Of a DNA stretch of 64,000 nucleotides, positions 5,046 to 20,262 are shown in pieces. Origin of the DNA: a virus; IMG/VR virus record IMGVR_UViG_3300028563_000011, positions 1 through 64,000 of that record. One strand, written 5' to 3'. The notes beneath the pieces are model-generated. The model was not told the origin of the DNA. It did not search any database and saw nothing but the letters and a program-made list of their open reading frames with translations. Positions within the stretch are counted from its first letter, which is position 1, and each line of letters starts with the position of its first letter. Made by a program: the position numbers and the translations under genes.

Positions 5046-5091
5046 GCGGCGGGTGACGTTGAGGCTTCGAGCCTCGGGGTTTGCCTGCCGT
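5046..5091 (+). promoter_or_regulatory. early-arm RNA hairpin element, divergent copy 0
   Basis: GCGGCGGGTGA / GAGGC-TTCGA-GCCTC / GGGG / TTTGCCTGCCGT. Confidence 0.45.
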
Positions 5092-5179
5092 CGTTCAGCA
5101 TGAATTCCGCCTCCTCGTGGCGCTGAATGGGCAACGCGCAATACCGCGCGGCTGAGAGAATTTTATAGGAGAGAGAACT

Positions 5180-5728
5180 ATGATGACCCTCAATACCGAA
5201 GCCAACACCACCGACACCAACAAGTCCGAGGCGTCCTCCGTTGCCAAGGCACTGCTCGATGCAGTCAACGCCAAGGCGAAGAAGGCCAATCGGGCCGAAC
5301 GGCGCGCGGCGGCGAAGGCCATGGCGAAGGCTTCCAAGGAAGCGGCGCAGGTTGCTTCCGAGGTTGCTCCGGCTGCTCCGGCGCCGGTTCAGGAAGTCAA
5401 GTCCCCGGAAGTGCCGGTCCAACTCACGGCCAGCACGCGGGACTATGCTTCCATGCGCCGTTTCATAAAGAAGTACGGGCGCAGCGCGGTGGAAGGCGCC
5501 TTGCGTGAGGTTGCCAAGGAAGTCAGCGGCCGACGGATCTTTGCGCCGACGGACGTCATCACGCTTCTGAAGGCGGAAAATCCGCACGCTCGCGGCACCA
5601 AGAACTGGAAGCGTTGGAACAAGTACCGCAATGGGATGACCGTTGCGGAAGCGGTGAAGGCGGGCATCGAGCGCGCCAACATCCGTTACCTCAACAGCAT
5701 CAATTACATCGCGGTCAGCGGTGGCTGA
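5180..5728 (+). CDS. first early gene; Ala/Lys-rich N-terminus, basic C-terminal domain (possible DNA binding)
   Basis: ATAGGAGAGAGA RBS; C-terminal NP..RG....RW..Y..GMTVAEA...G domain. Confidence 0.85.
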   Translation: MMTLNTEANTTDTNKSEASSVAKALLDAVNAKAKKANRAERRAAAKAMAKASKEAAQVASEVAPAAPAPVQEVKSPEVPVQLTASTRDYASMRRFIKKYGRSAVEGALREVAKEVSGRRIFAPTDVITLLKAENPHARGTKNWKRWNKYRNGMTVAEAVKAGIERANIRYLNSINYIAVSGG

Positions 5729-5773
5729 GTGCAGCTAGGGCGGTCCCCGTAGGGACCGCCTTATGGTGTACTC
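5727..5773 (+). repeat. early-arm RNA hairpin element copy 1
   Basis: GAGTGCA-GCTAG-9-bp stem-TTATGG-TGTACTC. Confidence 0.85.
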
Positions 5774-5788
5774 CATAGGAGAGAGAAC

Positions 5789-5965
5789 ATGTTGTACTAC
5801 GAAGAGATTTACAACTTCCTGTATATGAGTAGCTACTCCGAAGCGGAGAAAGCACGAGCTCGGTGCGAGATCACGCATATGTCGGATCAAGACTGGAACG
5901 ATTGGGTCAGTTACCGTAACCAACGCCGACGGCAGGAAGCTCACCAATCCAAAGCATGTGTTTAG
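5789..5965 (+). CDS. 58-aa hypothetical protein (not in ORF track)
   Basis: ATAGGAGAGAGAAC-ATG; MLYYEEIYNFLYMSSYSEAEKAR...KACV. Confidence 0.8.
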   Translation: MLYYEEIYNFLYMSSYSEAEKARARCEITHMSDQDWNDWVSYRNQRRRQEAHQSKACV

Positions 5966-5980
5966 CTTTGGACGGTTTGA

Positions 5981-6023
5981 GGTAGCAGCTAGCGTAGCCT
6001 ACGGGCTACGTCAGGGTGCTACT
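5981..6023 (+). repeat. hairpin element copy 2
   Basis: GGTAGCA-GCTAG-CGTAGCC-TACG-GGCTACG-TCAGGG-TGCTACT. Confidence 0.9.
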
Positions 6024-6034
6024 GCACCACGACC

Positions 6035-6064
6035 GGACCTGAGTCAAGTCCCAAAACTGACTCA
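6035..6064 (+). promoter_or_regulatory. H-type pseudoknot in 5' leader
   Basis: S1 GGAC/GTCC, S2 TGAGTCA/TGACTCA, 1-nt loops L1 and L2, L3 CAAAAC. Confidence 0.55.
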
Positions 6065-6088
6065 ACTCATCTTATAGGAGAGAGAACC

Positions 6089-6349
6089 ATGAGCTTGCAA
6101 GAAACACGTCGTGAGACCGTCAAGGAACGGCTGGCCCGGTTGGAAGCCGAAAATGAACGGCTAAATGCCGCCATCCGCAAGAAGTCTTCTAGCAATCTTC
6201 GGCTGGCGTTGGGGAACAAGAGGAATATCTCCCTCTACGGTCTCCAGAAGTGGCCCGTGACGTTCTATCGGGATCAATGGGAAAAGATCCTAGACATGGC
6301 GGATGAAATCCGTGAGTTCATCAAGAACAATCAAGACAAACTCGCCTAA
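6089..6349 (+). CDS. small protein, N-terminal coiled coil plus possible PC4-like ssDNA-binding fold
   Basis: strong RBS; ISLYGL..WPVTFY.DQW..IL....EI..FI. Confidence 0.8.
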   Translation: MSLQETRRETVKERLARLEAENERLNAAIRKKSSSNLRLALGNKRNISLYGLQKWPVTFYRDQWEKILDMADEIREFIKNNQDKLA

Positions 6350-6362
6350 AGGGAGCTTCCTC

Positions 6363-6452
6363 ATGTTCTTCAGTTGGAAAGGCGCAACCGATGGGTTAGT
6401 GTTGAACCTTGTGATTGTGCTAGCAATCATGCTTGTTTTGCATTGGCTTTGA
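6363..6452 (+). CDS. 29-aa single-TM peptide (not in track)
   Basis: AAAGGGAG RBS; MFFSWKGATDGLVLNLVIVLAIMLVLHWL; stop abuts element 3. Confidence 0.55.
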   Translation: MFFSWKGATDGLVLNLVIVLAIMLVLHWL

Positions 6453-6456
6453 TCGG

Positions 6457-6502
6457 AGTGCAGCTAGGGCGGATCCTGGATGGATCCGCCTCAGGGTGCA
6501 TT
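6457..6502 (+). repeat. hairpin element copy 3
   Basis: AGTGCA-GCTAG-GGCGGATCC..GGATCCGCC-TCAGGG-TGCATT. Confidence 0.9.
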
Positions 6503-6552
6503 ACCGCACCAATACGGTGGAAATGGTTCCACCAAAGAGGAGAGTGAAGATC

Positions 6553-6837
6553 ATGACCGCAATGGACAACCTTCAGAGCCAAGGCTACCCGGACCAGGAC
6601 AACGTCTCCAACTTGGAGCAGGACCAGGCCCGTGTGGATGCCCTCCGTGAGGACTTCCTGGAAGCCGACGCCGAAGGTGATACGGCCCGTGCCGACCAGG
6701 ACGTGGCGGAAGCTGAGGCAATCATGGCCCAGGACCCTGCCGTCGATCCGGATGGGTCGGACGATGACGATAACGATGCTGACGACAACATCAGCACCGA
6801 TGACGGCGTCAGTGACGAAGTCGAGGGCGATCTCTAA
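6553..6837 (+). CDS. extremely acidic 94-aa protein
   Basis: GAGGAGAG RBS before ATG 6553; 32 D/E versus 3 R and no K. Confidence 0.8.
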   Translation: MTAMDNLQSQGYPDQDNVSNLEQDQARVDALREDFLEADAEGDTARADQDVAEAEAIMAQDPAVDPDGSDDDDNDADDNISTDDGVSDEVEGDL

Positions 6838-6845
6838 TCGCCTTT

Positions 6846-6894
6846 GAGTGTAGTCAGGGGGGTGCCTGAAAGGGCACCTCCTCAGAGTGCACTT
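6846..6894 (+). repeat. hairpin element copy 4
   Basis: GAGTGTA-GTCAG-stem-TCAGAG-TGCACTT. Confidence 0.85.
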
Positions 6895-6955
6895 TATTTT
6901 GAGAGATTTATGGTAGCATAAAGACCTAGATGAAAGGTTTTTATGGTACCACCGC

Positions 6956-7002
6956 GAGTGTAGCCAGGAAGGTGCCTTCGGGCACCTTCTCAGGGGGCAC
7001 TT
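6956..7002 (+). repeat. hairpin element copy 5
   Basis: GAGTGTA-GCCAG-GAAGGTGCC-TTCG-GGCACCTTC-TCAGGG-GGCACTT. Confidence 0.85.
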
Positions 7003-7035
7003 TGAAAACACCAAGCATAGGAGAGAGAATCAATC

Positions 7036-7227
7036 ATGGCTTCCAATGCCAAGTCCGACAAGAAGGATCGCCACAGCAAGAGCAAGCAAAACTTGCGGTA
7101 CATAAATGAACGGCGACACGCCAAGTCGCACGTCAAAAGGTTGAAGAAGCATTTGGAAACTCAACCTGACGACAAACTTGCGAAGATCGCTTTGGCAAAA
7201 TACAAGATCGAAGCTGGGGTCTCTTAA
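7036..7227 (+). CDS. highly basic 63-aa protein
   Basis: strong RBS, K/R/H-rich. Confidence 0.8.
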   Translation: MASNAKSDKKDRHSKSKQNLRYINERRHAKSHVKRLKKHLETQPDDKLAKIALAKYKIEAGVS

Positions 7228-7273
7228 GTCCAACTAGGGCGGTCCCTACGGGATCGTCTCAGGATGCACTTAA
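7224..7273 (+). repeat. hairpin element copy 6
   Basis: TTAAGTCCA-ACTAG-stem with TACG loop-TCAGGA-TGCACTTAA. Confidence 0.85.
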
Positions 7274-7294
7274 GCATCACATAGGAGAGAGACC

Positions 7295-7423
7295 ATGGGG
7301 CGTTTTGAAACGCCGGATCAAGATAACACCCAAGTCAAGGTTGGCTTGGCGGCAGGCATGTTTTATGGCTTCGCCATAGCCGGGGTTTTTCTGCTGCTGG
7401 CCTGGTTGGCCTCAGGAGGTTGA
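7295..7423 (+). CDS. 42-aa single-TM protein (not in track)
   Basis: ATAGGAGAGAGACC-ATG; hydrophobic C-terminal half. Confidence 0.75.
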   Translation: MGRFETPDQDNTQVKVGLAAGMFYGFAIAGVFLLLAWLASGG

Positions 7424-7428
7424 GCGTA

Positions 7429-7474
7429 AGTGCAGTGCAGCGCAGTCTTACCTTAGACTGCGTCACGGTGCACT
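7429..7474 (+). repeat. hairpin element copy 7
   Basis: AGTGCA-GTGCAG-CGCAGTCT..AGACTGCG-TCACGG-TGCACT. Confidence 0.9.
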
Positions 7475-7512
7475 CATACCGAGTGTCCCCAACCCGGAAA
7501 GTAGGAGAGAGG

Positions 7513-7830
7513 ATGACGAAAGAACATTCCCATACAAATGGGCATATGGGGCATTTTGACTTTGTGGAAATCAAGTCCACGGATGAAAGGCTTCATGGCC
7601 CATATCCAGTGATCCTTGATGTTGGATCCTTCATCTGGATCCCAGCGTCACAGGATATCACAGCCATCCCGGAAGTCCAGCTTGTCACAGACGGACGTAG
7701 CTCAGGCCTAGACGGTGATGGAAATTGCATCGCAAGCGTTCCTGCGGCGTGGTGTTCCTTCATCTCTGAAGCTCAGGCCATCGATCTGGCCGAAAGCCTA
7801 CAAAGGAAGGAGGAACCTGCCTCCGCCTAA
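7513..7830 (+). CDS. hypothetical protein
   Basis: GTAGGAGAGAGG RBS before ATG 7513. Confidence 0.75.
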   Translation: MTKEHSHTNGHMGHFDFVEIKSTDERLHGPYPVILDVGSFIWIPASQDITAIPEVQLVTDGRSSGLDGDGNCIASVPAAWCSFISEAQAIDLAESLQRKEEPASA

Positions 7831-7832
7831 CC

Positions 7833-7891
7833 GAGTGTGACGAAGCACAGTCTCCTTTTTTCACAGGGGGAGACTGTGTCACGATGCACTC
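7833..7891 (+). repeat. hairpin element copy 8
   Basis: GAGTGTG-ACGAAG-CACAGTCTCC..GGAGACTGTG-TCACGA-TGCACTC. Confidence 0.85.
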
Positions 7892-7921
7892 TTGTGGCAT
7901 CTTATAGGAGAGAGAACCCCA

Positions 7922-8185
7922 ATGAAAGAGATCAAAAGTCAGGAACATCTGGACAACATGGCTAGAAAAGGAACCCCAGCCCGTTACTGGGTTGGTCACG
8001 TTCCGGGCAAGGATGATTTTGGGATCCCCATCATCGACGTTTTCTACGATGGGAAGACCAGGGCTGGTCCCTGGGCCTTTATGACCCCGGCCGCCTTCGC
8101 GAACTATGGCGTTGGTCTTGGAACAGGGCGAGGCCAGAAATACGAGCGTCAGGCTGACGGTCGTTGGCTCAAAACGGAGGGTTAA
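7922..8185 (+). CDS. conserved-looking phage hypothetical protein
   Basis: RBS; FYDGKT..GPWA.M.......YG.GLG.GRGQKY. Confidence 0.85.
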   Translation: MKEIKSQEHLDNMARKGTPARYWVGHVPGKDDFGIPIIDVFYDGKTRAGPWAFMTPAAFANYGVGLGTGRGQKYERQADGRWLKTEG

Positions 8186-8190
8186 AACAA

Positions 8191-8508
8191 ATGATCTCTC
8201 CGATTACGGCGCGCCGTGCCTTGGCCTTTAAGGCTGCAACTGATGGTCAGTTGAAGTTAACCGAAGAAGAGAAGGCTCGGTGGGAGCCTTTCCTCCACCA
8301 CACTTGGCAAGCCATTGGTCCGGATGCAGAGCAATTTGTCAGCAAGGGCCGTGGGCGAATTGCGGAGATCATTGAGCTTTGCCTTGATGCTAACCGCATG
8401 ACCACCTTTTCGAACATCACCCCTGAAGAAGAGGGGGTGTTGTGCGGTCTATGGGTCAAGAAAGACCGTAAGACCATGCAATGGTTACGGAAGACGTTGA
8501 ACTACTAA
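8191..8508 (+). CDS. hypothetical protein
   Basis: GGAGG RBS, start ATG 8191. Confidence 0.75.
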   Translation: MISPITARRALAFKAATDGQLKLTEEEKARWEPFLHHTWQAIGPDAEQFVSKGRGRIAEIIELCLDANRMTTFSNITPEEEGVLCGLWVKKDRKTMQWLRKTLNY

Positions 8509-8557
8509 AAGTACAACTAGCGCAGTCTCTTAACTGAGACTGCGTCAGGGTGTACTT
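8509..8557 (+). repeat. hairpin element copy 9 (near-identical to copy 15)
   Basis: AAGTACA-ACTAG-CGCAGTCTC..GAGACTGCG-TCAGGG-TGTACTT. Confidence 0.9.
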
Positions 8558-8588
8558 GAGTGTACATCTGTACCATAGGAGAGAGAAC

Positions 8589-8852
8589 ATGCTAGGCGAT
8601 GAGGAAGAGTGTGGAGCACTTACCAAGAAAATGCGAACATGGCTGGTGTTGTACTTTATGGCCGTTTTCGCTTCTACAGGGTACTTCTACAAGTACGACT
8701 GTGCTGACCCATCAACTCCAAATGACACACCTCGTGGGCTTTGCGCAGGGCTTATGGCTTTGGCCCTGCCGATAACCGGCCCTATGTCCTTTTCCGTCCA
8801 ACTGTGGACAAATGGGTTGCCCTTCTCGTTAAGTATCAAACCCAAAGACTGA
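8589..8852 (+). CDS. two-TM membrane protein
   Basis: RBS before ATG 8589; two hydrophobic segments. Confidence 0.75.
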   Translation: MLGDEEECGALTKKMRTWLVLYFMAVFASTGYFYKYDCADPSTPNDTPRGLCAGLMALALPITGPMSFSVQLWTNGLPFSLSIKPKD

Positions 8853-8900
8853 AGTACAACTAGGGTGGTGTTGAAGAAAGCACCACCTCAGGGTGTACTT
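8852..8900 (+). repeat. hairpin element copy 10
   Basis: AAGTACA-ACTAG-stem-TCAGGG-TGTACTT. Confidence 0.9.
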
Positions 8901-8929
8901 AAGTACACTTCTACCATAGGAGAGAGAAC

Positions 8930-9187
8930 ATGAAAAAGCAGCAGACCCAGCTTAAGGCTGGAATGCGAGTCACTATCAGTGGCGGGATGGAAGAATTCCG
9001 CGGCAAACGTGGCGTTATCATCAACACCGAACGCCTCATTGGGGATGTCGGTGGCTTGATGTACCGTGTCAGGCTTGATGAGCCTGTTGAAATCCCCGGC
9101 TTGGGCAAGGTCGAAGATGACGTCTGGGCTGTTGATAGACTTCAACCCCTGAAAGAAGAAACCACAGCGGCCGTACGTCGGTACTGA
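8930..9187 (+). CDS. KOW/SH3-like small protein
   Basis: LKAGMRVTISGG..EFRGKRGVI...YRVRLD. Confidence 0.8.
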   Translation: MKKQQTQLKAGMRVTISGGMEEFRGKRGVIINTERLIGDVGGLMYRVRLDEPVEIPGLGKVEDDVWAVDRLQPLKEETTAAVRRY

Positions 9188-9213
9188 TCCAGCACAGAGG
9201 GTATCGAATAAGC

Positions 9214-9259
9214 ATTGCAAGCTCGGTGGTTACTTACGAGTAATCACCAGGGTTGCAAT
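9214..9259 (+). repeat. hairpin element copy 11 (GCTC/AGGG subtype)
   Basis: ATTGCAA-GCTC-stem with TACG loop-AGGG-TTGCAAT. Confidence 0.85.
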
Positions 9260-9286
9260 CCTGCGACCTCATAGGAGAGAGATCTT

Positions 9287-10762
9287 ATGTTAAAGACAAA
9301 GGTACCTGCAAAGAAGGTTCCTGCCGTTGAGGCCCACAATTGGTCTCAGTACGAAGGAGGCGTCAAGTTTGACGGCCAGCACATTGTGCTGCCTGCAAAC
9401 CCAGAAGAAATGCCTCTTGACGTGGCTGAAGACCACATCCGGCGCCTTCGTCAAGACCAAGAACAGAAATACCGGTTCTTCGAGAAAATCGATGCCTACC
9501 CGCACGATGCGGCCGTTGCCTTTCAACGGGCGATGGTGAATTTGTTCGGGTGGTCGTCGCCACAGTCCATGATGACTTGGTTCGGGAAGCGTCCGCCGGA
9601 AATGTTGCGTGTGAGTACCGGTCCCGGACCGAATGATTTCGTTCAGGTCCCTCAGGGCTCCTTCAAGGTCCCAAACATCGAGGACGATATCCAGGCTGCT
9701 ATCAATACCGATGAGAACTTCTTCTACATCACAGCGAGCATCAAGAAAAAGGATCAGCCCAAGATGGTTCGGCTGGTCGAAGAAACTCGACGGCTTGTCC
9801 GCGAGGAAAGCATCTATCGCGGGAAGGCCATCCAACTGCGGGTGGACGAAGACGGTGACCTGATGGTCAGGAAACCACCAGAGTTCATCGACGCGACCAA
9901 GTCAGTGCCGGTCATCTTGGATGATTTGGTAATGAATCAAGTGAAAGACAATCTCTTGGTTCCCATCAAATTCACCCAACAAGTCAAGGCTTTGGGGATC
10001 CCTCTGAAAAGGGGAGTCCTGCTCGAAGGCCAATACGGTACTGGCAAGACCCTCATCGCCAAGCTTGTGGCGAATGTGTGTTACGAGAACGGCTGGACCT
10101 ACATCCTGCTGGATCGTATCCAGGGTCTCCGTGCGGCGCTGGAATTCGCCAAAAGGTACTCGCCGGCAGTGGTCTTTGCTGAAGATATCGACCGTATCGC
10201 CGACGAACGTGACGATGATACCAATGACCTCATCAACACGATCGACGGGGTGGTGTCGAAAGACAGCGAGATCATGACGGTTCTCACCACCAACTTCGTG
10301 GAGAAACTGGACCCAGTAATCCTTCGCCCCGGTAGACTGGACGCGGTAATCTCTATCCGTGCTCCTCAAGCCGAAGCTGTGGAACGGCTGATCCGGTTCT
10401 ATGCCGGTGAGTTGCTTGACAAGGACGAAAATCTGGCATCACTCAAGGATGTCTTAAAGGGACAGATCCCTGCAACCATCCGTGAGGTGGTGGAACGGTC
10501 CAAGTTGGGCAGTATCGGACGTGGAGCTTCAACGCTGTCCGCCAACGACCTGCTGGTCTCGGCGGAGACCATGAAGAATCACATGGCTCTGTTGGCTCCG
10601 AAGCTGCCGCCACAAACGGCAGCTGAGAAGTTGTCTGAAGGGCTTCAGGAAGTCCTTCACATCGGCAATGGGTCCACCGACTACGAGGGTTTGGCTGAAG
10701 GCTTAGCCGACCAAATCAACAAGCGTGGGGGCATGATGATTATGTCTCCCAAGAAGAACTAA
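9287..10762 (+). CDS. AAA+ ATPase (proteasome/FtsH-like clade)
   Basis: Walker A GQYGTGKT, Walker B VVFAEDID, second region of homology LDPVILRPGRLD. Confidence 0.92.
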   Translation: MLKTKVPAKKVPAVEAHNWSQYEGGVKFDGQHIVLPANPEEMPLDVAEDHIRRLRQDQEQKYRFFEKIDAYPHDAAVAFQRAMVNLFGWSSPQSMMTWFGKRPPEMLRVSTGPGPNDFVQVPQGSFKVPNIEDDIQAAINTDENFFYITASIKKKDQPKMVRLVEETRRLVREESIYRGKAIQLRVDEDGDLMVRKPPEFIDATKSVPVILDDLVMNQVKDNLLVPIKFTQQVKALGIPLKRGVLLEGQYGTGKTLIAKLVANVCYENGWTYILLDRIQGLRAALEFAKRYSPAVVFAEDIDRIADERDDDTNDLINTIDGVVSKDSEIMTVLTTNFVEKLDPVILRPGRLDAVISIRAPQAEAVERLIRFYAGELLDKDENLASLKDVLKGQIPATIREVVERSKLGSIGRGASTLSANDLLVSAETMKNHMALLAPKLPPQTAAEKLSEGLQEVLHIGNGSTDYEGLAEGLADQINKRGGMMIMSPKKN

Positions 10763-10768
10763 AGCCTT

Positions 10769-10817
10769 TTGTAAGCTCGATGTCCCGTCAAAAGTCGGCG
10801 GGGCATCAGGGTTGCAA
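10769..10817 (+). repeat. hairpin element copy 12
   Basis: TTGTAA-GCTC-stem-AGGG-TTGCAA. Confidence 0.85.
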
Positions 10818-10892
10818 TCGTGCAGCCAATCAGGTCCACTGCAACTTTCTTAGGTCCTGAATCATCACCCAGATGAGAGGAGGAGAAGGGTC

Positions 10893-10970
10893 ATGACTAT
10901 TCATCACCACTGTGCTCTGTGTGCGTACGGGTACATCCTCGCCTTGATGGTGGGAACCCTCCCTTGGTAA
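10893..10970 (+). CDS. 25-aa His/Cys peptide (not in track)
   Basis: GAGGAGGAG RBS; MTIHHHCALCAYGYILALMVGTLPW. Confidence 0.5.
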   Translation: MTIHHHCALCAYGYILALMVGTLPW

Positions 10971-10983
10971 TGGAGACAAAAAC

Positions 10984-11223
10984 ATGTCTGCAATTCGCAG
11001 TCATTCGCAATCCCTTGCCAAAGCCGTGTCCTGGCGGTTGGTCGGCAGCGTTGATACTTTCGTTGTCGCTTTCGTCCTTACTGGCCATCCAGGAGCAGCC
11101 GGAGCAATTGCTTCGACTGAGGTTCTCACGAAGACTGTTCTGTACTACCTCCATGAGCGGGTCTGGCTGATCCGTCAATGGGGCGGAAGGAAGGTGCCCG
11201 ATGATCAAGAAAGTCATGACTAA
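10984..11223 (+). CDS. DUF2061-like membrane protein
   Basis: SLAKAVSWRLVGS.DTF....LYYLHERVW..I.WG. Confidence 0.85.
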   Translation: MSAIRSHSQSLAKAVSWRLVGSVDTFVVAFVLTGHPGAAGAIASTEVLTKTVLYYLHERVWLIRQWGGRKVPDDQESHD

Positions 11224-11389
11224 ACTGCACATCCATGTCAGCCACAAGGTTCTCCATGTCGGGGCGCACTGGACTGAGATGACGTATCTGATACTGGTGT
11301 TTGTGACCTCCCACGGTCCTTACACCTGGGCGGCGGGAACCTTGTTCGTCATCAAGGTGATTGCCGTGATCAAACACGAGGAGGTGTGA
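11201..11389 (+). CDS. small His-rich membrane protein
   Basis: ORF with RBS, two hydrophobic segments. Confidence 0.65.
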   Translation: MIKKVMTKLHIHVSHKVLHVGAHWTEMTYLILVFVTSHGPYTWAAGTLFVIKVIAVIKHEEV

Positions 11390-11392
11390 AAG

Positions 11393-11554
11393 ATGAAAGT
11401 CCCTCAATTGACAAAACATCAACACCGCGTCCTCGTCTTTGTGGGGTTATTCTTGTGCGTGGTAGTTTCGGTTAGTGAAGCCGGGTACTATACGCACTCT
11501 GCGATAATCCAGTTCCTCGTCAACGCTTTTTGGCTCCTTGAGCCAGAAGCCTAG
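11393..11554 (+). CDS. 53-aa membrane protein (not in track)
   Basis: GAGGAGG RBS; MKVPQLTKHQHRVLVFVGLFLCVVVS... Confidence 0.65.
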   Translation: MKVPQLTKHQHRVLVFVGLFLCVVVSVSEAGYYTHSAIIQFLVNAFWLLEPEA

Positions 11555-11566
11555 CAACATAGCACG

Positions 11567-11613: not shown

Positions 11614-11646
11614 AATGCTGACACAACCCTTATAGGAGAGAGAACC

Positions 11647-12813: not shown

Positions 12814-12819
12814 AAGGCT

Positions 12820-13849: not shown

Positions 13850-13854
13850 ACAAA

Positions 13855-13904
13855 AAGTGTAGTGCAGCGCAGTCTCTTAACTGAGACTGCGTCACGGTAC
13901 ACTT
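13855..13904 (+). repeat. hairpin element copy 18 (near-identical to copy 24)
   Basis: AAGTGTA-GTGCAG-stem-TCACGG-TACACTT. Confidence 0.9.
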
Positions 13905-13930
13905 GGGTACCACTTATAGGAGAGAAGATC

Positions 13931-14233
13931 ATGGTTGAAAATGAGAAAAAGTACTCAATGGAAGAAATTCATAAGATGCGCGATAAACTCGCCGTCCTTT
14001 TGAGCCCATACGACAAGGAGGACTTTCTCTTGCTCTTTCTGGGCTTGTTGAAGTTCTTGGCTGATCGCCTAGTGACACATTCCAAAGCCAAGAAATATGT
14101 TGAAAACGGAGAACCCATTTCCAAGGAGCATATGGCAGACGATTTGCTCCGTGGGGCGGGTCTTATCGGCAAGACCTTTACAGCCTACGTTGCTGAGTCA
14201 TTCAAGCAAGTGACTTCCTCAGCCATTAACTAA
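13931..14233 (+). CDS. hypothetical protein
   Basis: RBS before ATG 13931. Confidence 0.8.
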   Translation: MVENEKKYSMEEIHKMRDKLAVLLSPYDKEDFLLLFLGLLKFLADRLVTHSKAKKYVENGEPISKEHMADDLLRGAGLIGKTFTAYVAESFKQVTSSAIN

Positions 14234-14235
14234 CA

Positions 14236-14284
14236 AAGTACAACTAGGTGAGCCTGCCTTTTAGGGCTCACTCAGGGTGTACTT
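14236..14284 (+). repeat. hairpin element copy 19
   Basis: AAGTACA-ACTAG-GTGAGCC..GGCTCAC-TCAGGG-TGTACTT. Confidence 0.9.
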
Positions 14285-14314
14285 AAACAATGCACCGTAT
14301 AGGAGAGAGCAAAG

Positions 14315-14779
14315 ATGTCACAATCAAACCCAATAGACCCTTGGTTCGAACGTCCCTTGGACCACCGAGCGCCTAAGGGTGGGGAGGAAGGTGTCAATGG
14401 TCATCACTACAAAGGTGGGGAGTTCTTACCTTTCTACGTACCTAGGCCAGTGATGCCTCAAATTGAGCATCACGACCTGAACGCCTTGATCCGGTTTGTG
14501 AGGGAAAAGGGAGTATGGGCCCGTAGGAGGATCTATACTCCATTAGAACTCCACAACCATCAACGCATCAATTGGGACGCTAGCCGCTGGAAACCCCAGC
14601 TAGGACGCTTCCCGGTACTTGTGTCTGTGGATAAGTTCATCCTCGACGGGAATCATCGTTGGTACGGGCACCTGAAGGAAGGAACCCCAGTTCCAGTCGT
14701 CCAATTTGGTTTGGCGTTTGAGCCGGCCATAGCCCTCCTCTTCAAATTCCCTCGAACATCTTCAGGAGCTCGACAATGA
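14315..14779 (+). CDS. ParB/Srx-like domain protein
   Basis: PVLVS.D.FILDGNHRW motif. Confidence 0.75.
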   Translation: MSQSNPIDPWFERPLDHRAPKGGEEGVNGHHYKGGEFLPFYVPRPVMPQIEHHDLNALIRFVREKGVWARRRIYTPLELHNHQRINWDASRWKPQLGRFPVLVSVDKFILDGNHRWYGHLKEGTPVPVVQFGLAFEPAIALLFKFPRTSSGARQ

Positions 14780-15006
14780 GGAAAAGGAAAGCAAACTTGC
14801 TTCCAGACACACGTCCTCGTTGGGACGACCCTGACTTAAGATGTTCTTACGGGAAGTACAAAGAGGGAAAGTCTGCATTAGATGTACAACGAGGCTGTAA
14901 GCATCGTATGCACGACCTTTTACCTGAGTGGGACCCTTCACCTGAGTGGTATGCTGACCCATCCTATTTTTGGGGTTGTAGGAACAAAGGAGATCAAAGT
15001 GAATGA
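14776..15006 (+). CDS. hypothetical protein
   Basis: ATGA overlap and AGGAG RBS. Confidence 0.6.
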   Translation: MRKRKANLLPDTRPRWDDPDLRCSYGKYKEGKSALDVQRGCKHRMHDLLPEWDPSPEWYADPSYFWGCRNKGDQSE

Positions 15007-15256
15007 GCAAATCATAGCTAAACTAGGGTATTCCCCAGCTAAACAGCTTCCATCAGGAGAATGGGCCGGGGTGATGGATATGCTTTTCACTGTTGGCCTT
15101 TTTGTTGGAATAGACATGGTAGGTTGGCGTACTCGATATTGTTTCCCCAATCGTGCGGCTGCTGAAGCCGCTTTGAAAGCTTGGGATGGGGAAGGCTTTC
15201 CACCAGGTTATTGGATCAAACAAAAGCCGGAAGACATATCTAACCCCAATCTCTGA
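14999..15256 (+). CDS. hypothetical protein
   Basis: AAGGAG RBS before GTG 14999; GWRTRYCF...W.G.G.PPG.WIK. Confidence 0.7.
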   Translation: MNEQIIAKLGYSPAKQLPSGEWAGVMDMLFTVGLFVGIDMVGWRTRYCFPNRAAAEAALKAWDGEGFPPGYWIKQKPEDISNPNL

Positions 15257-15311
15257 TTGTAGACTGATGGGCTACTTTTCTCTTTTCAAGTTAGCCCATT
15301 GGCGTGCAATC
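15255..15311 (+). repeat. hairpin element copy 20 (divergent)
   Basis: GATTGTA..ATGGGCTA/TAGCCCAT..TGCAATC, alternative GCGTGCA/TGCACGT hairpin. Confidence 0.7.
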
Positions 15312-15336
15312 CCTGCACGTTATAGGAGAGAGAACA

Positions 15337-15876
15337 ATGATCAGTGCAACGTACTGTTGCGTTCCGGAAGGAATTCGTCCGATCTTTGACGTGGCACTAG
15401 AACTCACCTCAAAGCGATTGGGCATTGATGCCTACAATGCTACAATCAAGTTCCATCTGAGGCCCCCAGGCTTCACTTCAAAAGACACGCCTGAGGGTAT
15501 GTCAGAAGGTGGAGCCTTAGCGCCTTCTCTTTCGGAAGAGAATGCCAAGCGTGTGGAAAAGGGTCTGCCGCCGAAACTGTTTGACTTATCCATTACGGTT
15601 GATTCACCAACGCAAATGATGCTCGCTTTCGCGCATGAGATGATACACATCCGTCAGTGGTTAACGGGGGAACTAGCCATTAAGACTATGCGCAAAAGTT
15701 CCCCCAAAGAACTTCAGTACCTATACTACAATAGGGTTCCCATCAAGGATGAAATCCCTTATAAGGCCCGACCTTGGGAAACTGAAGCCCACAAGAAAAT
15801 GGATGAGTTGGCAGTTTGGTTGATGAGAGAATTGACCAAACACGAAGAGGAAATATTGGGTAAAGTGCGCCCTTAA
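15337..15876 (+). CDS. HExxH zinc metallopeptidase-like protein
   Basis: AHEMIHIRQW ... Y..RPWETEA. Confidence 0.8.
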   Translation: MISATYCCVPEGIRPIFDVALELTSKRLGIDAYNATIKFHLRPPGFTSKDTPEGMSEGGALAPSLSEENAKRVEKGLPPKLFDLSITVDSPTQMMLAFAHEMIHIRQWLTGELAIKTMRKSSPKELQYLYYNRVPIKDEIPYKARPWETEAHKKMDELAVWLMRELTKHEEEILGKVRP

Positions 15877-15880
15877 AAGC

Positions 15881-15926
15881 AAGTGTAACTAGCACAGCCC
15901 TATTAGGGCTGTGTCAGGGTACACTT
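15881..15926 (+). repeat. hairpin element copy 21
   Basis: AAGTGTA-ACTAG-CACAGCCCT..AGGGCTGTG-TCAGGG-TACACTT. Confidence 0.9.
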
Positions 15927-15955
15927 AAATGTACCATTTGAAAAGGAGAGAGAAC

Positions 15956-16294
15956 ATGGATATCGAAAACCTTACGCTCAAACAGATCCGAGAAATCGGG
16001 TCTTTGTTTCAAGCTACTCCATCCAATACGGAAGGAGCCTGGAAAATTGGGCGGAATTACCTCATTCGTACCGTCACAATGTTCCAAACGGGTAGGCTGG
16101 TTGCGGTTTACCCCCAAGAACTGGTCCTTGAGGACGCCGCTTGGATCCCCGATACTGGACAGTTTGCTCAGGCCGTCGAGAAATCTCAATTCAAGGAAGT
16201 CGAACCCTTCCCTGATAACCGACAGGTTATTGTTGGCCGAGGTTCAGTGATTGACGCCGTGGAAATCCAAATCCTTCCAAGGTCAATCAAATGA
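15956..16294 (+). CDS. putative Sm/LSm-like beta-barrel protein (DUF6948-like)
   Basis: IG.NYLIRTVT....GRLVAV...ELVLEDAAWI.D.G; ATGA-coupled to the SR/SW peptide. Confidence 0.75.
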   Translation: MDIENLTLKQIREIGSLFQATPSNTEGAWKIGRNYLIRTVTMFQTGRLVAVYPQELVLEDAAWIPDTGQFAQAVEKSQFKEVEPFPDNRQVIVGRGSVIDAVEIQILPRSIK

Positions 16295-16446
16295 GTACCA
16301 TTTCGATACTAGGGTCTAGGTCTTGGTCTTGGTCTTGGTCTGGGTCTAGGTCTGGGTCTTGGTCTGGGTCTTGGTCTGGGTCTAGGTCTAGGTCTAGGTC
16401 TAGGTCTGAGTCTAGGTCTTGGTCTTGGTCTGGGTCTACGAGTTAA
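16291..16446 (+). CDS. Ser-Arg/Ser-Trp dipeptide-repeat peptide 1 (51 aa, not in track)
   Basis: MSTISILG(SX)n from a TCT-NGG hexamer array; ATGA overlap. Confidence 0.7.
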   Translation: MSTISILGSRSWSWSWSGSRSGSWSGSWSGSRSRSRSRSESRSWSWSGSTS

Positions 16447-16448
16447 GC

Positions 16449-16496
16449 GATTGTTACTCACTACAGTCTATCACAAGACTGTAGTAGGAAGCAATC
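16449..16496 (+). repeat. hairpin element copy 22
   Basis: GATTGTT-ACTC-ACTACAGTCT..AGACTGTAGT-AGGA-AGCAATC. Confidence 0.75.
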
Positions 16497-16516
16497 AGAC
16501 AAGAAAAGAGAGATCA

Positions 16517-17164
16517 ATGGAGAAACTCTACCATGGGACGACCCTAACCCACTTACCTCAAATTATGGCAAAAGGAATAGTGCCTCGGGCCAAATCCAAG
16601 GTCAAAGGCAATTGGGAAGGTACCGTTAACAGCAACAGGAATGCGGTGTACCTAACAACTGCATATCCTTGGCACTTTGCAGCTGCTGCATCAAAGGATC
16701 AAATGGGTCTGGTTCTAGAGATCAAATCAGAAGAACTCTTACCCTTCAAACTTGCTCCTGATGAAGATTTCTTGGAGCAGCTAACCAGAAACATAGGACC
16801 ATCAGAGGCTGCGCCCAATCTTGCCCCTATTGATTGGGGTATGGTCAAAAGAACCAAGTTTTACCGCAAGGTCGCAAGGTTTAACCCCAACCTAGCCCCT
16901 ATTAGTTTGGCCAAGATGGGAACTGCGGCTTATTATGGTACCATCCCTTGGAGTGCTGTTTCACGCTATGTTATTATTGATTGGAGTAAGCTGCCTTGGC
17001 AACTAAAGCTTCAAGCAACTGATTCTCAAGTTAGCATCATCAATTACCAAGTCCTTTCAGAGAAGCACAATCAACGTGAAGGACTCAAAGTCGAAAATGT
17101 CGGAGGAAGTTATGCAAAAAGTTTGGGTAGTACGGACCATGGATTGGGAGGGAATTTGGATTAA
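16517..17164 (+). CDS. ADP-ribosyltransferase-fold protein
   Basis: LYHGT....I...GI.P, VYLT, A..AA, LVLEI motif series. Confidence 0.65.
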   Translation: MEKLYHGTTLTHLPQIMAKGIVPRAKSKVKGNWEGTVNSNRNAVYLTTAYPWHFAAAASKDQMGLVLEIKSEELLPFKLAPDEDFLEQLTRNIGPSEAAPNLAPIDWGMVKRTKFYRKVARFNPNLAPISLAKMGTAAYYGTIPWSAVSRYVIIDWSKLPWQLKLQATDSQVSIINYQVLSEKHNQREGLKVENVGGSYAKSLGSTDHGLGGNLD

Positions 17165-17270
17165 CGCTTCATTTCATAGGACTGAGGCTGGAGCCTACAA
17201 AAAGGCACCAAGTGTAGCAGAGCGTTATGAAGCCCCAACCTATGTAACAAATTATATTCTTGAAGAGTAG
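17112..17270 (+). CDS. small hypothetical protein
   Basis: GGAGG RBS before ATG 17112; KVWVV...D.EG......FH.T...A. Confidence 0.6.
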   Translation: MQKVWVVRTMDWEGIWINASFHRTEAGAYKKAPSVAERYEAPTYVTNYILEE

Positions 17271-17310
17271 AGTTCATCGCAGCAGGCTTTTTAGATAGGA
17301 GAGAGACATC

Positions 17311-18252
17311 ATGACAAGGATGAACTTCGATAAAACAAGGCGCTCAAAACTCCTGGCTCAAACTCGGGCTTCCTCCCCTGACCCCAGGTTTAATTATCTG
17401 GCAAAGGAACAAGAAGTTCTAGTGATGCCAACAAAGGAACCAGCCATGGGTTTAACCAACACCCTCAAACCGACGGTGATGGAAATCACCCCAGAGCTAG
17501 CCACAAAATGGCTCGAAGGGAATGTCCATAACCGCAAACTCCGCCAGAAGGAGGTTGACCGCCTTGCACGTGAAATGAAAGGTGGGCGTTGGGCTCTTAA
17601 TGGGGAGTCCATCATCTTCGCTAGCGATGGGACATTGCTAGATGGACAACACAGGCTCTGGGCTTGTGTTGAAAGTCAGGTAACTTTCCAGTCCGTTGTG
17701 GTATACGGAGCGGATGCCTCCTCATTTACCACGATTGACCAAGGGCGTCATCGTTCGCCGGCCAACCACCTGGAAGTGGCACGTGTCCAATCGAACTACA
17801 CAACAACTGTTGCTGCGGTTGCTTCCATTATTATCCGTTACCGCACCAACAATATCTTCTCTAACGAGAAGGTAAATCCTGCGGATCTTGTCGAACTGGT
17901 CAAAACGAACCCCGAAATCGTTGAATGGGTCAATAAGGCCAGAAAGGCTCCAAAAGGGCTCAAGGGAAGTGCGTCATCAATCGCTACTGTTCTTTACCTG
18001 GGCAGCCGGTATCTGCCAAATGAGGCTGAAGCCTTCCTACACCACTGGGTCACAGGTTCTGACTTAGCAACAGGATCTCCCATCCTAACGCTCCGTCAAC
18101 GGGTCCTGACCGCAAAACCCCCAGCTTCGCAATGGGAACGGCTCTTCTTGGTTGTAAGCGCGTGGAATGCTTACGCTGAGAAACGTCCTCTTTATAAGAT
18201 GGGCAGCTTGCGTGGGGATAAGTTTCCTGGCATTGTTGGTTACGAAAAATAA
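17311..18252 (+). CDS. ParB-N-like domain protein
   Basis: ITPELA..WL..N..NR.L......LA..M..G.W..NG..I.F..DG.LLDGQHRL.A. Confidence 0.85.
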   Translation: MTRMNFDKTRRSKLLAQTRASSPDPRFNYLAKEQEVLVMPTKEPAMGLTNTLKPTVMEITPELATKWLEGNVHNRKLRQKEVDRLAREMKGGRWALNGESIIFASDGTLLDGQHRLWACVESQVTFQSVVVYGADASSFTTIDQGRHRSPANHLEVARVQSNYTTTVAAVASIIIRYRTNNIFSNEKVNPADLVELVKTNPEIVEWVNKARKAPKGLKGSASSIATVLYLGSRYLPNEAEAFLHHWVTGSDLATGSPILTLRQRVLTAKPPASQWERLFLVVSAWNAYAEKRPLYKMGSLRGDKFPGIVGYEK

Positions 18253-18313
18253 GAGTGCAACTAGCACGGTCTTAGGGGGAAGAATATACTTAAGACCGTG
18301 TCAGGGGGCACTT
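18253..18313 (+). repeat. hairpin element copy 23
   Basis: GAGTGCA-ACTAG-CACGGTCTTA..TAAGACCGTG-TCAGGG-GGCACTT. Confidence 0.9.
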
Positions 18314-18338
18314 AAGCGCCATATAGGAGAGAGAACGG

Positions 18339-18599
18339 ATGAGAAAAGAACTTGAATACGTTCAAATACCACCCAATGAAGCACCAATTACAGAGCTCTG
18401 GGCTTGGTTGTCAATTGATGACAAAGGCAATGAAGGAATTGTTGCCTTTGAATTGTCCAATAAGACTTGGATGTCTGTTACGTCAAAGCGGCGTATAGCG
18501 GAAAAGATGCGGCCCTTTGTACAAGAAGTCGTAGAACGCTCTGGACTTCGGGTGCGGCTTGTAAAGTTCACCACCAAGGAAGTGGTCGAAGAAAACTAA
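18339..18599 (+). CDS. hypothetical protein
   Basis: conserved RBS. Confidence 0.8.
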   Translation: MRKELEYVQIPPNEAPITELWAWLSIDDKGNEGIVAFELSNKTWMSVTSKRRIAEKMRPFVQEVVERSGLRVRLVKFTTKEVVEEN

Positions 18600-18747
18600 T
18601 CTCTTTAGGAGAGAACCCACCAAGGCCGTATGTATACGTACAGATTGGCCAAGCTCGGTGGTCAAGGAAGCCCCTACGGGGGAACTTCCACTCTCCTATA
18701 CGGCGATGGCAGGCCGTCGTCCGAGATTAGTCTGCCCTTCCTTTTTC
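18595..18747 (+). ncRNA. candidate multi-stem pseudoknotted RNA
   Basis: P1 18595-18603/18723-18731, P2 18606-18613/18691-18698, C(UACG)G hairpin, loop GGCAG pairs with 3' CTGCC. Confidence 0.6.
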
Positions 18748-18748
18748 T

Positions 18749-18799
18749 GAGTATAGTGCAGCGCAGTCTCTTAAATTGAGACTGCGTCACGGTACACTT
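18749..18799 (+). repeat. hairpin element copy 24
   Basis: near-identical to copy 18 through the RBS. Confidence 0.9.
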
Positions 18800-18828
18800 G
18801 GGTACCACTTATAGGAGAGAAGATCAGC

Positions 18829-19122
18829 ATGAGTCTTGCAGATAAACTTGGGTTTGGCCCAAAGCGAGAGCTAACTGCTCTTGGCGATGGGATGTACCTA
18901 CTTAAAGTCACCCCACCAAGTTGGTCCCATTTTTCCCCCTCAACCATTCGTTTGACGGAAGATCAGGTCAAACGATATGAGCGGTGGCTTACCGACGATA
19001 CCCTCATACAAGATGCTTTCCCTGAGTTGAGTCTGGACCAACGGGAAATCCTCCTGTCCGGAATTGGACCGGGGGAGTTCAGCGAAGCTTTCAAAGACAA
19101 CGAAGAGGACCAAAATGGCTGA
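18829..19122 (+). CDS. conserved-looking phage hypothetical protein
   Basis: LIQDAFPELS.DQREIL.SGI.P.E motif. Confidence 0.85.
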   Translation: MSLADKLGFGPKRELTALGDGMYLLKVTPPSWSHFSPSTIRLTEDQVKRYERWLTDDTLIQDAFPELSLDQREILLSGIGPGEFSEAFKDNEEDQNG

Positions 19123-19300
19123 TATCCAAAAAGACCGTGACCACACCAAAGCTGCACCCGTCAAAAAGAAATGTGTAGGGGGTTGCACACACCCCTTCCA
19201 GGATGAGCGATACGGTAAAGGCGTTCGCCTTATGAACCCAATCGCTTCGGGCGGTTTCCCCAAATACCGCTGCACCGTCTGCAGCCGTGAACAAGACTAA
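19115..19300 (+). CDS. small zinc-binding protein
   Basis: C...C.H.FQD..YG.G.R..N...RCTVC. Confidence 0.75.
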   Translation: MADIQKDRDHTKAAPVKKKCVGGCTHPFQDERYGKGVRLMNPIASGGFPKYRCTVCSREQD

Positions 19301-19311
19301 GAGGAGGTACT

Positions 19312-19509
19312 GTGATGAACTTTCAAGCTCTTTCAATACTCATGAACGACCCAACAAAGTTGTCAATAAAACCAGGAGCAGATAACCCAGAAAAAGACAC
19401 TAGGCACTTTGGAGCCTACATTACCGTAACACTTGGACTTTCAAGTAAGACTTTCTTTATTGGTGTGGACACTAGCACTGGTAAAGATGTAATCGAGCAA
19501 GTTGAGTAA
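19312..19509 (+). CDS. hypothetical protein
   Basis: GAGGAGG RBS. Confidence 0.75.
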   Translation: MMNFQALSILMNDPTKLSIKPGADNPEKDTRHFGAYITVTLGLSSKTFFIGVDTSTGKDVIEQVE

Positions 19510-19559
19510 AGCACAGCTAGGTGAGCCTGCCTCTTTTAGGCTCACTCAGGGTGTACTTT
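19508..19559 (+). repeat. hairpin element copy 25
   Basis: AAAGCACA-GCTAG-GTGAGCCT..AGGCTCAC-TCAGGG-TGTACTTT. Confidence 0.9.
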
Positions 19560-19587
19560 TGCACCGTTTATAGGAGAGAGAAATGAC

Positions 19588-19956
19588 ATGGACCTATTTA
19601 AGATAGAATGTTTCGTGGAGGACAAGCGCCTAGCGCAAGTCCACCGCGCGCTATCGGGGTTAGTTTACGAACTCCAAACAACCCCTGTCACCAATGTGAC
19701 TCAGACCGAAGATGGTGCCTTAAAGGCCAAAAGCCATACAGGATCCTTTGGTGCGGTTCTAAAGAGCCTAAAATTGGGCCAAACCTTCACTTCTAAGGAG
19801 GTTAGAGACCGTTTGGTTGCTGAAGGATATTCGGATCAGCGCCATCACGGTGTCCTACACCAACTGACAAAGTCAGGAGTCATCAAACGTGTTGGAACGG
19901 GTAAGTACCAACTGACGCAACCCAACACCAAATCCAAGGCTCGGAGAAAAGCATGA
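19588..19956 (+). CDS. winged-helix DNA-binding protein
   Basis: FT..EV......L..L.KSG.IKRVG.GKY. Confidence 0.7.
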   Translation: MDLFKIECFVEDKRLAQVHRALSGLVYELQTTPVTNVTQTEDGALKAKSHTGSFGAVLKSLKLGQTFTSKEVRDRLVAEGYSDQRHHGVLHQLTKSGVIKRVGTGKYQLTQPNTKSKARRKA

Positions 19957-20213
19957 GCAAACCTACCACCAAGAAAGGTCCTTTGAAGCTCTACAAATCG
20001 TATATCTTCAAAGAAAAAGATCCTGTTATTGATCAACTGCGAACGGTTGTTCAAGACTCCAAGAAGAGCTACGGAGAGATCCATGCCCTGTCTGGGGTCA
20101 GCGTTTCGGCAATCAACGGTTGGTTCAACGGGGTTACAAAACGGCCCCAATTTGCTACCGTTAACGCCGTGGCTAGTGCTTTGGGCCAAGAGTTCAAACT
20201 TACCAAGAAGTGA
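19953..20213 (+). CDS. XRE-family HTH regulator
   Basis: SY.EI..LSGVS.SAI..WF.G.TKRPQF.TV.AVA.ALG. Confidence 0.85.
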   Translation: MSKPTTKKGPLKLYKSYIFKEKDPVIDQLRTVVQDSKKSYGEIHALSGVSVSAINGWFNGVTKRPQFATVNAVASALGQEFKLTKK

Positions 20214-20262
20214 TTGTAAAGTCAATAGGGCTGAGCAATTGGCCCTATTAGCGTTTCAATCA
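20211..20262 (+). repeat. hairpin element copy 26 (divergent, last)
   Basis: TGATTGTAA-AGTC-AATAGGGC..GCCCTATT-AGCG-TTTCAATCA. Confidence 0.65.

Follow-up and report, generated by a model that had tools for sequence, protein, structure and literature searches.

The window analysed here, the first 64 kb of a 110,591-bp IMG/VR virus record (IMGVR_UViG_3300028563_000011; the phage is called G000 below), contains an early arm at about 5.2–20.3 kb on the + strand with about 38 small genes. Between these genes lie 26 RNA hairpins of one two-tier architecture, all on the + strand, at 5727–20262. With moderate confidence, and from comparative sequence evidence, we propose that the hairpins act as inter-cistronic RNA processing signals on a long sense early transcript, which would be cut by an endonuclease, most likely host RNase III, and would refold downstream of each cut.

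Results

Architecture and placement of the two-tier hairpins

Every intergenic gap of the arm was folded with RNAfold. From the base upward, each hairpin consists of a lower stem of 5–8 bp, a purine·G mismatch, a 2-bp helix, a small loop and an upper stem of free sequence (median 10 bp). The loops are very small, from 1×1 to 2×2. Folding tests were made on 39 copies, namely the 26 of G000 together with seven from G001 and six from G002, two related phages described below. In this set the median arm length is 21 nt on either side, and the 5′ arm is 20–22 nt long in 26 of the 39 copies.

Placement follows the length of the junction. A hairpin is present in 24 of the 25 junctions of at least 60 nt, one of which has two, and in none of the 13 tight or overlapping junctions. 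The median distance is 2 nt from the preceding stop codon to the hairpin and 30 nt from the hairpin to the next start codon, in front of which stands a near-invariant ribosome-binding-site (RBS) box at most junctions (Table 1). The junction at 17165–17310 (+ strand, 146 nt) is the sole long junction of the arm without a two-tier hairpin, and it still ends in an RBS box.

The copies were sorted by their core sequence. The type A core reads GURCA-RCUAG ... UCAGGG-UGYAC, and the type C core GUGCAG or GCGAAG ... UCACGG. The type B core reads UUGCAA-GCUC ... AGGG-UUGCAA. Type B (four copies) and four odd copies keep the shape and not the core sequence; in type B, G-C stands in place of a G·U pair and loop letters are altered, while the shape and the alternative hairpin described below are retained.

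When the 64-kb window was searched with Rfam 15, no family matched at its gathering score, and none overlapped a hairpin at E values up to 5. No U-tract follows the hairpin in any of the 26 copies as printed, and none of 37 terminator-like sites in 2800–21500 coincides with the 26 hairpins.

Table 1 Predicted hairpins and other transcript elements of the early arm, in window coordinates (CM, covariance model).
Feature	Positions	Strand	Type and core	CM score (bits)	Alternative hairpin and remarks
Hairpin 1	5727–5773	+	A variant, 3′ core UUAUGG	46	UAUGG/CCAUA, weak; hairpin dG −35 kcal/mol
Hairpin 2	5982–6022	+	A	47.4	GGUGC/GCACC, 3 nt past upper stem
Hairpin 3	6455–6505	+	A	53.6	GGUGC/GCACC
Hairpin 4	6846–6894	+	A variant, GUCAG/UCAGAG	54.6	No clear short alternative; first of the junction's two hairpins
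Hairpin 5	6956–7002	+	A variant, GCCAG/UCAGGG	50.7	Weak
Hairpin 6	7228–7265	+	A, short lower stem	40.2	GAUGC/GCAUC, z = −4.4
Hairpin 7	7429–7474	+	C, GUGCAG/UCACGG	53.2	7 cross pairs
Hairpin 8	7833–7891	+	C, ACGAAG/UCACGA	42.7	z = −3.4
Hairpin 9	8509–8557	+	A	63.4	8 cross pairs; 3′ part and RBS box identical to copy 15 over 53 nt
Hairpin 10	8852–8900	+	A	56.5	8 cross pairs
Hairpin 11	9215–9258	+	B, UUGCAA-GCUC / AGGG-UUGCAA		GGUUGCA/UGCGACC, z = −4.2; missed by CM R1
Hairpin 12	10769–10817	+	B		7 cross pairs
Hairpin 13	11567–11613	+	B		8 cross pairs
Hairpin 14	11820–11872	+	Odd		Small pairing up to RBS flank; overlaps stop codon; missed by CM R1
Hairpin 15	12137–12183	+	A	60.5	Twin of copy 9
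Hairpin 16	12821–12872	+	B, bulged upper stem		GGGUUGCA/UGCAACC, 9 cross pairs
Hairpin 17	13139–13186	+	C, GCGAAG/UCACGG	46.4	GGUGC/GCACC
Hairpin 18	13857–13902	+	C	56.2	GGUAC/GUACC; identical to copy 24 over 50 nt
Hairpin 19	14236–14284	+	A	55.5	
Hairpin 20	15255–15311	+	Odd		GCGUGCA/UGCACGU, 9 cross pairs; missed by CM R1
Hairpin 21	15881–15926	+	A	55.2	
Hairpin 22	16449–16496	+	Odd		Without alternative hairpin
Hairpin 23	18253–18313	+	A, long upper stem	52	
Hairpin 24	18751–18795	+	C	51.1	Twin of copy 18
Hairpin 25	19511–19554	+	A	48.8	
Hairpin 26	20211–20262	+	Odd		Without alternative hairpin; at arm end
Candidate early promoter	4397–4425	+	TTGACT, 17 nt, TAGAAT, TG extension		Best σ70-like match upstream of the arm
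Anti-RBS stretch	5027–5041	+	TCTCTCTCCTCCTAT		Complementary to first RBS box; about 50 nt upstream of the HDV-like element
Candidate HDV-like self-cleaving ribozyme	5093–5165	+			Predicted cut 5′ of 5093; ends at first RBS box
RBS boxes, about 24, near-invariant	5165–20283	+	(C/T)ATAGGAGAGAGAAC, then 0–6 nt, then ATG		

Covariation in the sense RNA

The hairpins are a sense-strand RNA structure. All 39 copies are more stable as + strand RNA than as the reverse complement (−26.4 versus −20.5 kcal/mol, Wilcoxon p = 5e-8), and G·U makes up 104 of their 721 pairs (14%). Covariation was counted in an alignment of 27 type A and C copies from seven viral contigs. The counts include paralogues of one genome, so that the cells are not independent (a concern that the cross-phage copies and slid controls lessen but do not remove); read with this limit, 96.8% of the cells are paired versus 73% after shuffling and 28–48% in slid controls, and both sides have changed in 14 of the 17 pairs, which 0 of 500 shuffles match. 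In the 2-bp helix both pairs vary yet stay paired (CG/UG/UA and GC/AU).

Against this variation, five positions are invariant in the 27 copies: the A before the upper stem, the G·U closing pair and the CA after the upper stem. About seven more are nearly so, in contigs of differing G+C. Two further contigs, matched by a covariance model, read the same by eye. A search of the whole 110.6-kb genome of G000 with the covariance model recovers 18 copies, which lie without exception on the + strand at 5725–19560 and include two outside the seed. It misses the other eight, the four type B and the four odd copies.

An alternative hairpin ahead of the next gene

The 3′ arm of the two-tier hairpin can pair a second time. 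When the stretch from the first base after the upper stem through to the RBS box is folded, at least four pairs form between the 3′ arm and the downstream bases in 33 of the 39 copies, about 20 of which are in the window. In these 33 copies the alternative hairpin starts 1–4 nt past the upper stem, mostly at the fourth base, and its mean z score is −2.6 against dinucleotide shuffles. Pairing with the copy's own downstream partner is worth −7.7 kcal/mol, versus −4.9 kcal/mol for partners swapped in from copies with different arms (p = 1e-6). These predicted energies bear out the second pairing as real and specific to each copy, and it cannot coexist with the lower stem. In neither predicted state is the RBS box paired.

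A preliminary description of this DNA, made from the letters alone, had placed about 26 hairpins of one architecture directly after the stop codons of early genes. It took them for mRNA structures from the G-U pairs on the + strand and a 2-bp core covarying between copies, reported a mutually exclusive small hairpin in about 20 copies, whose pairing also covaried, and saw neither U-tracts nor promoter boxes. The folding, alignment and swapping results given here confirm it, and the core and alternative-hairpin examples that it quoted are all present. The covariance model that it suggested is the one described above, built from the 27-copy alignment.

Ribozymes in the same slot of related phages

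Related uncultured phages were found through the RBS box. Pattern scans of viral, metagenome and genome collections gave mostly chance singletons, and arrays were chosen later by copy count, folding or covariance model; in these scans no match in a named bacterial genome resembled an array. G001 (111 kb) has replication genes in common with G000 at 25–55% identity, and carries seven two-tier hairpins, in which the invariant loop recurs and alternative hairpins are present. Among the early-arm open reading frames (ORFs) of G000 that were compared (at least 80 residues), none has a homologue in G001. Six more hairpins are on G002, a 37-kb fragment, and further copies occur in L514, L491/L506, L496, L580 and L577, together with different ribosome-binding sequences and at G+C contents up to about 65%.

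G003 has the same RBS box, and type II hammerheads stand between the stop codon and the box. Two of them score 40.7 and 39.8 bits against Rfam family RF02276 (gathering score 37), and three more score 31–36 bits. The same arrays of hammerhead and box are found on the metagenome contigs L381, L332 and L309. Some of the flanking genes are homologous across the two kinds of element: the 85-residue product of 8930–9187, between hairpins 10 and 11 of G000, is 48% identical to that of an L381 gene with a hammerhead on both sides, and a 329-residue protein encoded in G001 behind a hairpin has a 54% identical counterpart in G003, encoded behind a hammerhead. Judged by slot and flanking genes, the hairpins are positionally equivalent to the predicted ribozymes of these relatives, and hammerheads in the same slot beside homologous genes support cutting at the hairpins. 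In prophages, hammerheads flank single genes, and it has been proposed that long phage transcripts are processed there into single-gene mRNAs (Perreault et al. 2011, PMC3088659).

The hairpins themselves are not hammerheads by these searches. In the window RF02276 gives no Rfam match at the gathering score or at E up to 5, in a search that finds the five G003 copies, and CUGANGA is not seen in the 26 copies as printed. A hammerhead-like three-way junction, composed of the hairpin, the alternative hairpin and a fourth complementary segment, was tried and dropped, as it fits copies 9, 10 and 15 only.

On the reverse strand of L275 (G003), at about 6640–6735 of the reversed locus, a tRNA-like element with a T arm and a CCA acceptor end has a hammerhead on one side and an RBS box on the other. 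This element may punctuate the transcript in a third way, through processing by RNase P or RNase Z.

RBS boxes and the leader of the first early gene

The GGAGAGA cores of the RBS boxes start at 5168, 5778, 6077, 7020, 7284, 7504, 7907, 8578, 8919, 9274, 11635 and 11880 and, further along the arm, at 12204, 12889, 13204, 13919, 14302, 15325, 15945, 17298, 18326, 18814, 19573 and 20272. The boxes are found on the + strand only and in this arm only; across the whole genome, every occurrence of AGGAGAGAGA falls between 5167 and 19572. Their spacing to ATG is that of a Shine–Dalgarno sequence. The box resembles TATAGGGAGA, and a role as a T7-like promoter was considered and rejected: the bases upstream of the box are not conserved, the spacing is as just stated, and no T7-like RNA polymerase was detected in the G000 genome by a search that had no positive control.

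In front of the first early gene the place of the two-tier hairpin is taken by a candidate ribozyme like that of hepatitis delta virus (HDV). The element at 5093–5165 scores 43.3 bits against RF02682, which is 0.7 under the gathering score of 44 (E = 7e-7 over a 401-nt stretch), and 37.2 bits against RF00094. Both models are matched over their full length, and the conserved stretches CCUCCUCG, GGGCAAC and GGCU are present. In the predicted fold the anti-RBS stretch at 5027–5041 pairs with 5165–5178 across the HDV-like element, with a duplex energy of −19.1 kcal/mol.

This layout of anti-RBS stretch, cutting element and RBS box is predicted in four phages, G000, G001, G002 and G003, the other anti-RBS sites being those of G001 (L127, near 11110), G002 (L276, near 4195) and G003 (L275, reverse strand). 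The cutting element of the leader differs among them: G000 has an HDV-like element, G003 a hammerhead and G001 a hammerhead-like element, and in G002 a two-tier hairpin stands in this place. Such a layout makes sense only when the RNA is cut at the element, which parts the leader from the message, and it supports cutting. According to the predicted pairing, the first early gene may need the cut in order to be translated. The leaders of the four phages, equally long, share no primary sequence. The G001 element has CUGAUGA, GAAA and a UC triplet; with a poor stem II and no Rfam match it was rejected as a true hammerhead and is called only hammerhead-like here.

Two observations concern the released side of the G000 leader. 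A hairpin at 5046–5092 would form its 3′ end. From the candidate promoter to the ribozyme candidate stretch about 660 nt (4430–5092, + strand) with a G+C of about 0.6, in which no ORF is convincing; this region could be a released structured RNA.

The phage and other features of its early arm

By gene content G000 looks like a siphovirus, with genes for a tape measure protein, a J-like tail fibre and an SbcCD-like nuclease. Among cultured phages G000 has no close relative: a megablast search with the early arm over 50,697 phage records returned nothing. The SbcC-like protein has no cultured-phage match above 31% identity, and a 491-residue ATPase and the tail J-like protein found no match as queries against viral contigs. 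A Pfam scan of ten early proteins returned no informative family, and no nuclease or RNA-binding family. The tyrosine recombinase family PF00589 had no match in the G000 genome, while the controls were positive in 14 of 14 cases.

The G+C content is 0.48–0.58 in the early arm (4000–20000) versus about 0.42 elsewhere in the window. Copies 9 and 15 are identical over 53 nt and copies 18 and 24 over 50 nt, and the genes that flank them are unrelated. The raised G+C of the arm and these twin copies beside unrelated genes suggest that the arm or its cassettes may derive from phages of higher G+C; they suggest for the same reasons that the hairpin units might in addition promote homology-based exchange of cassettes.

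A multi-stem RNA of about 135 nt is predicted at 18596–18730 (+ strand), beginning at the stop codon of the gene at 18339–18599. A 157-nt stretch that includes it has a minimum free energy of −60 kcal/mol (z = −5.2). In this RNA an internal RBS-like box is paired with an anti-box; the element has no Rfam match and no copy in the fetched loci. Tandem GGTCTN hexamers (+ strand) at 16291–16446, 20285–20524 and about 22219–22443 lie in ORFs that would encode Ser-Trp, Ser-Arg and Ser-Gly repeat peptides. There is a poly-C run at about 4236–4250, and a direct repeat of 126 bp, which starts with a G run, is present at both ends of the record (window 9–134, genome 110466–110591).

Discussion

Proposed course of processing

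We infer a single long transcript, its cutting, the exact position of the cut and the enzyme. The single transcript is suggested by the promoter-like sites: there is one upstream of the arm and no excess over chance inside it (12 versus 15.4 expected). The long sense transcript would probably start at the σ70-like candidate promoter at 4397–4425. Each hairpin would be cut by an endonuclease within or beside the region of its conserved internal loop. As a hairpin of about two helical turns with small loops is like the sites of phage T7, the likeliest enzyme and first candidate is host RNase III. The upstream mRNA would retain the stable upper stem as a guard of its 3′ end. The freed 3′ arm of the lower stem would pair with the next downstream bases into the small hairpin just past the upper stem, and the 5′ end of the downstream mRNA would be folded, with a standard strong RBS box following within a few bases.

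By the established topology of type II hammerhead and HDV-like ribozymes, the RNA downstream of either cut begins base-paired, and the alternative hairpin would give the same downstream 5′ product. At the RNase III sites of T7 a single cut on the 3′ side leaves a hairpin on the upstream mRNA. We folded R0.3, R0.5, R1, R1.1 and R1.3 at positions that are reportedly those of Dunn and Studier 1983, and the two-tier hairpins match these folds in size and in the way a loop divides the lower stem from the upper. That the type B and odd copies keep the predicted shape and not the core letters would fit an enzyme that reads shape.

Some results pull the other way. No RNase III is detectable among the G000-encoded proteins. 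No convincing alternative hairpin is seen in copies 1, 4, 5, 22 and 26, so that five or six copies are without one. The invariance of A, G·U and CA at G+C contents from 42% to about 65% exceeds the known needs of Escherichia coli RNase III and hints at a more specific reader or at RNA catalysis. The use of ribozymes in the same lineage is also unexplained if a host enzyme suffices.

Other explanations

RNA catalysis would mean that the two-tier hairpin is a new and very small class of self-cleaving ribozyme, with catalysis at the loop around the invariant G·U, interchangeable with type II hammerhead and HDV-like ribozymes, and with the refolding arm capping the new 5′ end. We regard this as unlikely, although the slot is shared with two established ribozyme classes, the five invariant and about seven near-invariant positions of the 27 copies recur by eye in two further contigs, and no Rfam family matches. 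The context is also like that in which twister-sister, pistol and hatchet were found, by searching intergenic regions near ribozyme-associated genes (Weinberg 2017, PMC5737381). On the other hand, the loops of 1×1 to 2×2 have free sequences and give no sign of a pseudoknot or tertiary contact, type B swaps G·U for G-C and alters loop letters, which a catalytic core would hardly tolerate, and the two-turn length suits an RNase III substrate. Equally improbable in our judgement is that the hairpins are never cut and serve as structural spacers, which would block 3′ exonucleases, insulate the RBS and flip when a terminating ribosome opens the lower stem. A ribosome terminating at a median of 2 nt from the hairpin would indeed unwind its 5′ arm, and the RBS box is free in the two predicted states; but equal access to the RBS in both states also makes a switch without output. 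Moreover, true cutting elements fill the slot in relatives, and in G002 the anti-RBS and box layout has this very hairpin where other phages have a ribozyme.

Operators for a phage RNA-binding protein, whether a translational repressor, an antiterminator or a loop-reading nuclease, seem still less probable. Hairpins recognised by proteins typically combine invariant loop bases with stems of free sequence, and an early arm rich in proteins without a known family could include such a factor. Yet the motif is common to G000 and G001, whereas the compared early-arm ORFs (at least 80 residues) have no G001 homologue, and the ten early proteins scanned include no nuclease or RNA-binding family. The alternative hairpin and the equivalence to ribozymes would go unexplained unless the protein is a nuclease. 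Elements acting at the level of transcription or DNA, that is, terminators without U each followed by a gene-specific promoter, or hairpins for cassette recombination like integron attC, are very improbable. The bracketing of genes or gene pairs like cassettes, the two pairs of copies identical over 50–53 nt beside unrelated genes and the G+C of the arm above that of the rest of the genome, suggesting exchange, are all as such elements would have them, but U-tracts and an excess of promoter-like sites are lacking in the arm, and the sole conserved box is at a Shine–Dalgarno distance. Neither a T7-like RNA polymerase (searched without a positive control) nor a tyrosine recombinase was detected in the genome. 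The boxes of attC read RYYYAAC/GTTRRRY, from which the conserved letters of the hairpins differ. The 14% of G·U pairs, one of them an invariant sense-strand G·U, and the ribozymes that fill the same slot in relatives also speak against terminators and recombination hairpins.

Relation to known systems

The RNase III sites of T7 and T3 are among the nearest known systems. In these and in G000, sense-strand hairpins stand between the early genes of a polycistronic transcript (a single one is inferred here), a lower stem, internal loop and upper stem of about 10 bp make up about two helical turns, and sequence near the loop is conserved between copies. Unlike T7, whose early region has 5 sites, G000 has 26 copies in 15 kb. 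The loop sequence also differs, with an invariant G·U closing pair flanked by A and CA, and most G000 copies have a copy-specific second hairpin, to which only R1.1 of the five folded T7 sites is comparable.

Type II hammerheads of prophages (PMC3088659, RF02276) share with the hairpins the slot between stop codon and RBS, the box and some homologous flanking genes, and the expected products are likewise an upstream 3′ hairpin and a downstream 5′ hairpin. The two-tier hairpins differ in having neither the CUGANGA and GAAA cores nor a three-stem junction. HDV-like ribozymes (RF02682, RF00094) are represented by one candidate, at 5093–5165 in the equivalent slot before the first early gene; their nested pseudoknot fold is unrelated to the 26 hairpins.

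Repeated units at gene starts are also reported from other phages. In Cluster K mycobacteriophages the start-associated sequence (SAS), which Pope and co-workers reportedly described in 2011, is a near-invariant box with an RBS before many genes, and an extended subset reportedly has an imperfect inverted repeat just upstream. The likeness to G000 is in both the box and the upstream repeat of a subset; the sequences and hosts are others, and the SAS is not known to have a two-tier architecture, a second pairing or an equivalence to ribozymes. In T4-type phages the PeSL cassettes (early promoter plus stem-loop), reportedly described by Arbiol and co-workers in 2010, put a promoter and a terminator-type stem-loop around small early genes and seem to promote shuffling. 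Repeated intergenic units bracket small early genes in G000 as well, where the twins 9/15 and 18/24 flank unrelated genes, but unlike in PeSL no promoter is seen in the units.

The preliminary description had read the arm as one transcript cut into mono- or oligocistronic mRNAs, each piece acquiring a refolded 5′ hairpin. This reading has gained strong comparative support from the hammerheads in the same slot and the HDV-like candidate, while its principle is not new, being already known from T7 RNase III sites and from prophage hammerhead arrays (PMC3088659). The motif, its copy number and the programmed refolding arm appear to be undescribed. Here the same description, which knew of no such copy number with a refolding arm, is in line with what we find: Rfam 15 has no match, and a refolding arm is not described for T7. 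To our knowledge, 26 copies is the highest number for such elements.

Meaning for phage early transcripts

If the hairpins are cut, no phage early region yet seen would have its mRNA segmented gene by gene as densely as the early arm of G000, and these phages would swap three unrelated devices, a hammerhead, an HDV-like ribozyme and a hairpin, in one slot for the same product. Hairpins that cut themselves would add a new class to the known ribozymes. Being short and modular, with many natural variants, the motif could serve as a compact processing or insulating part for synthetic operons.

The finding also bears on an open question, the purpose of ribozyme arrays in phage operons. The three devices would converge on a guarded upstream 3′ end, a structured downstream 5′ end and a standard ribosome-binding box. 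Such convergence points to message stability and uniform translation, rather than regulation, as what these phages may gain from punctuating their early genes.

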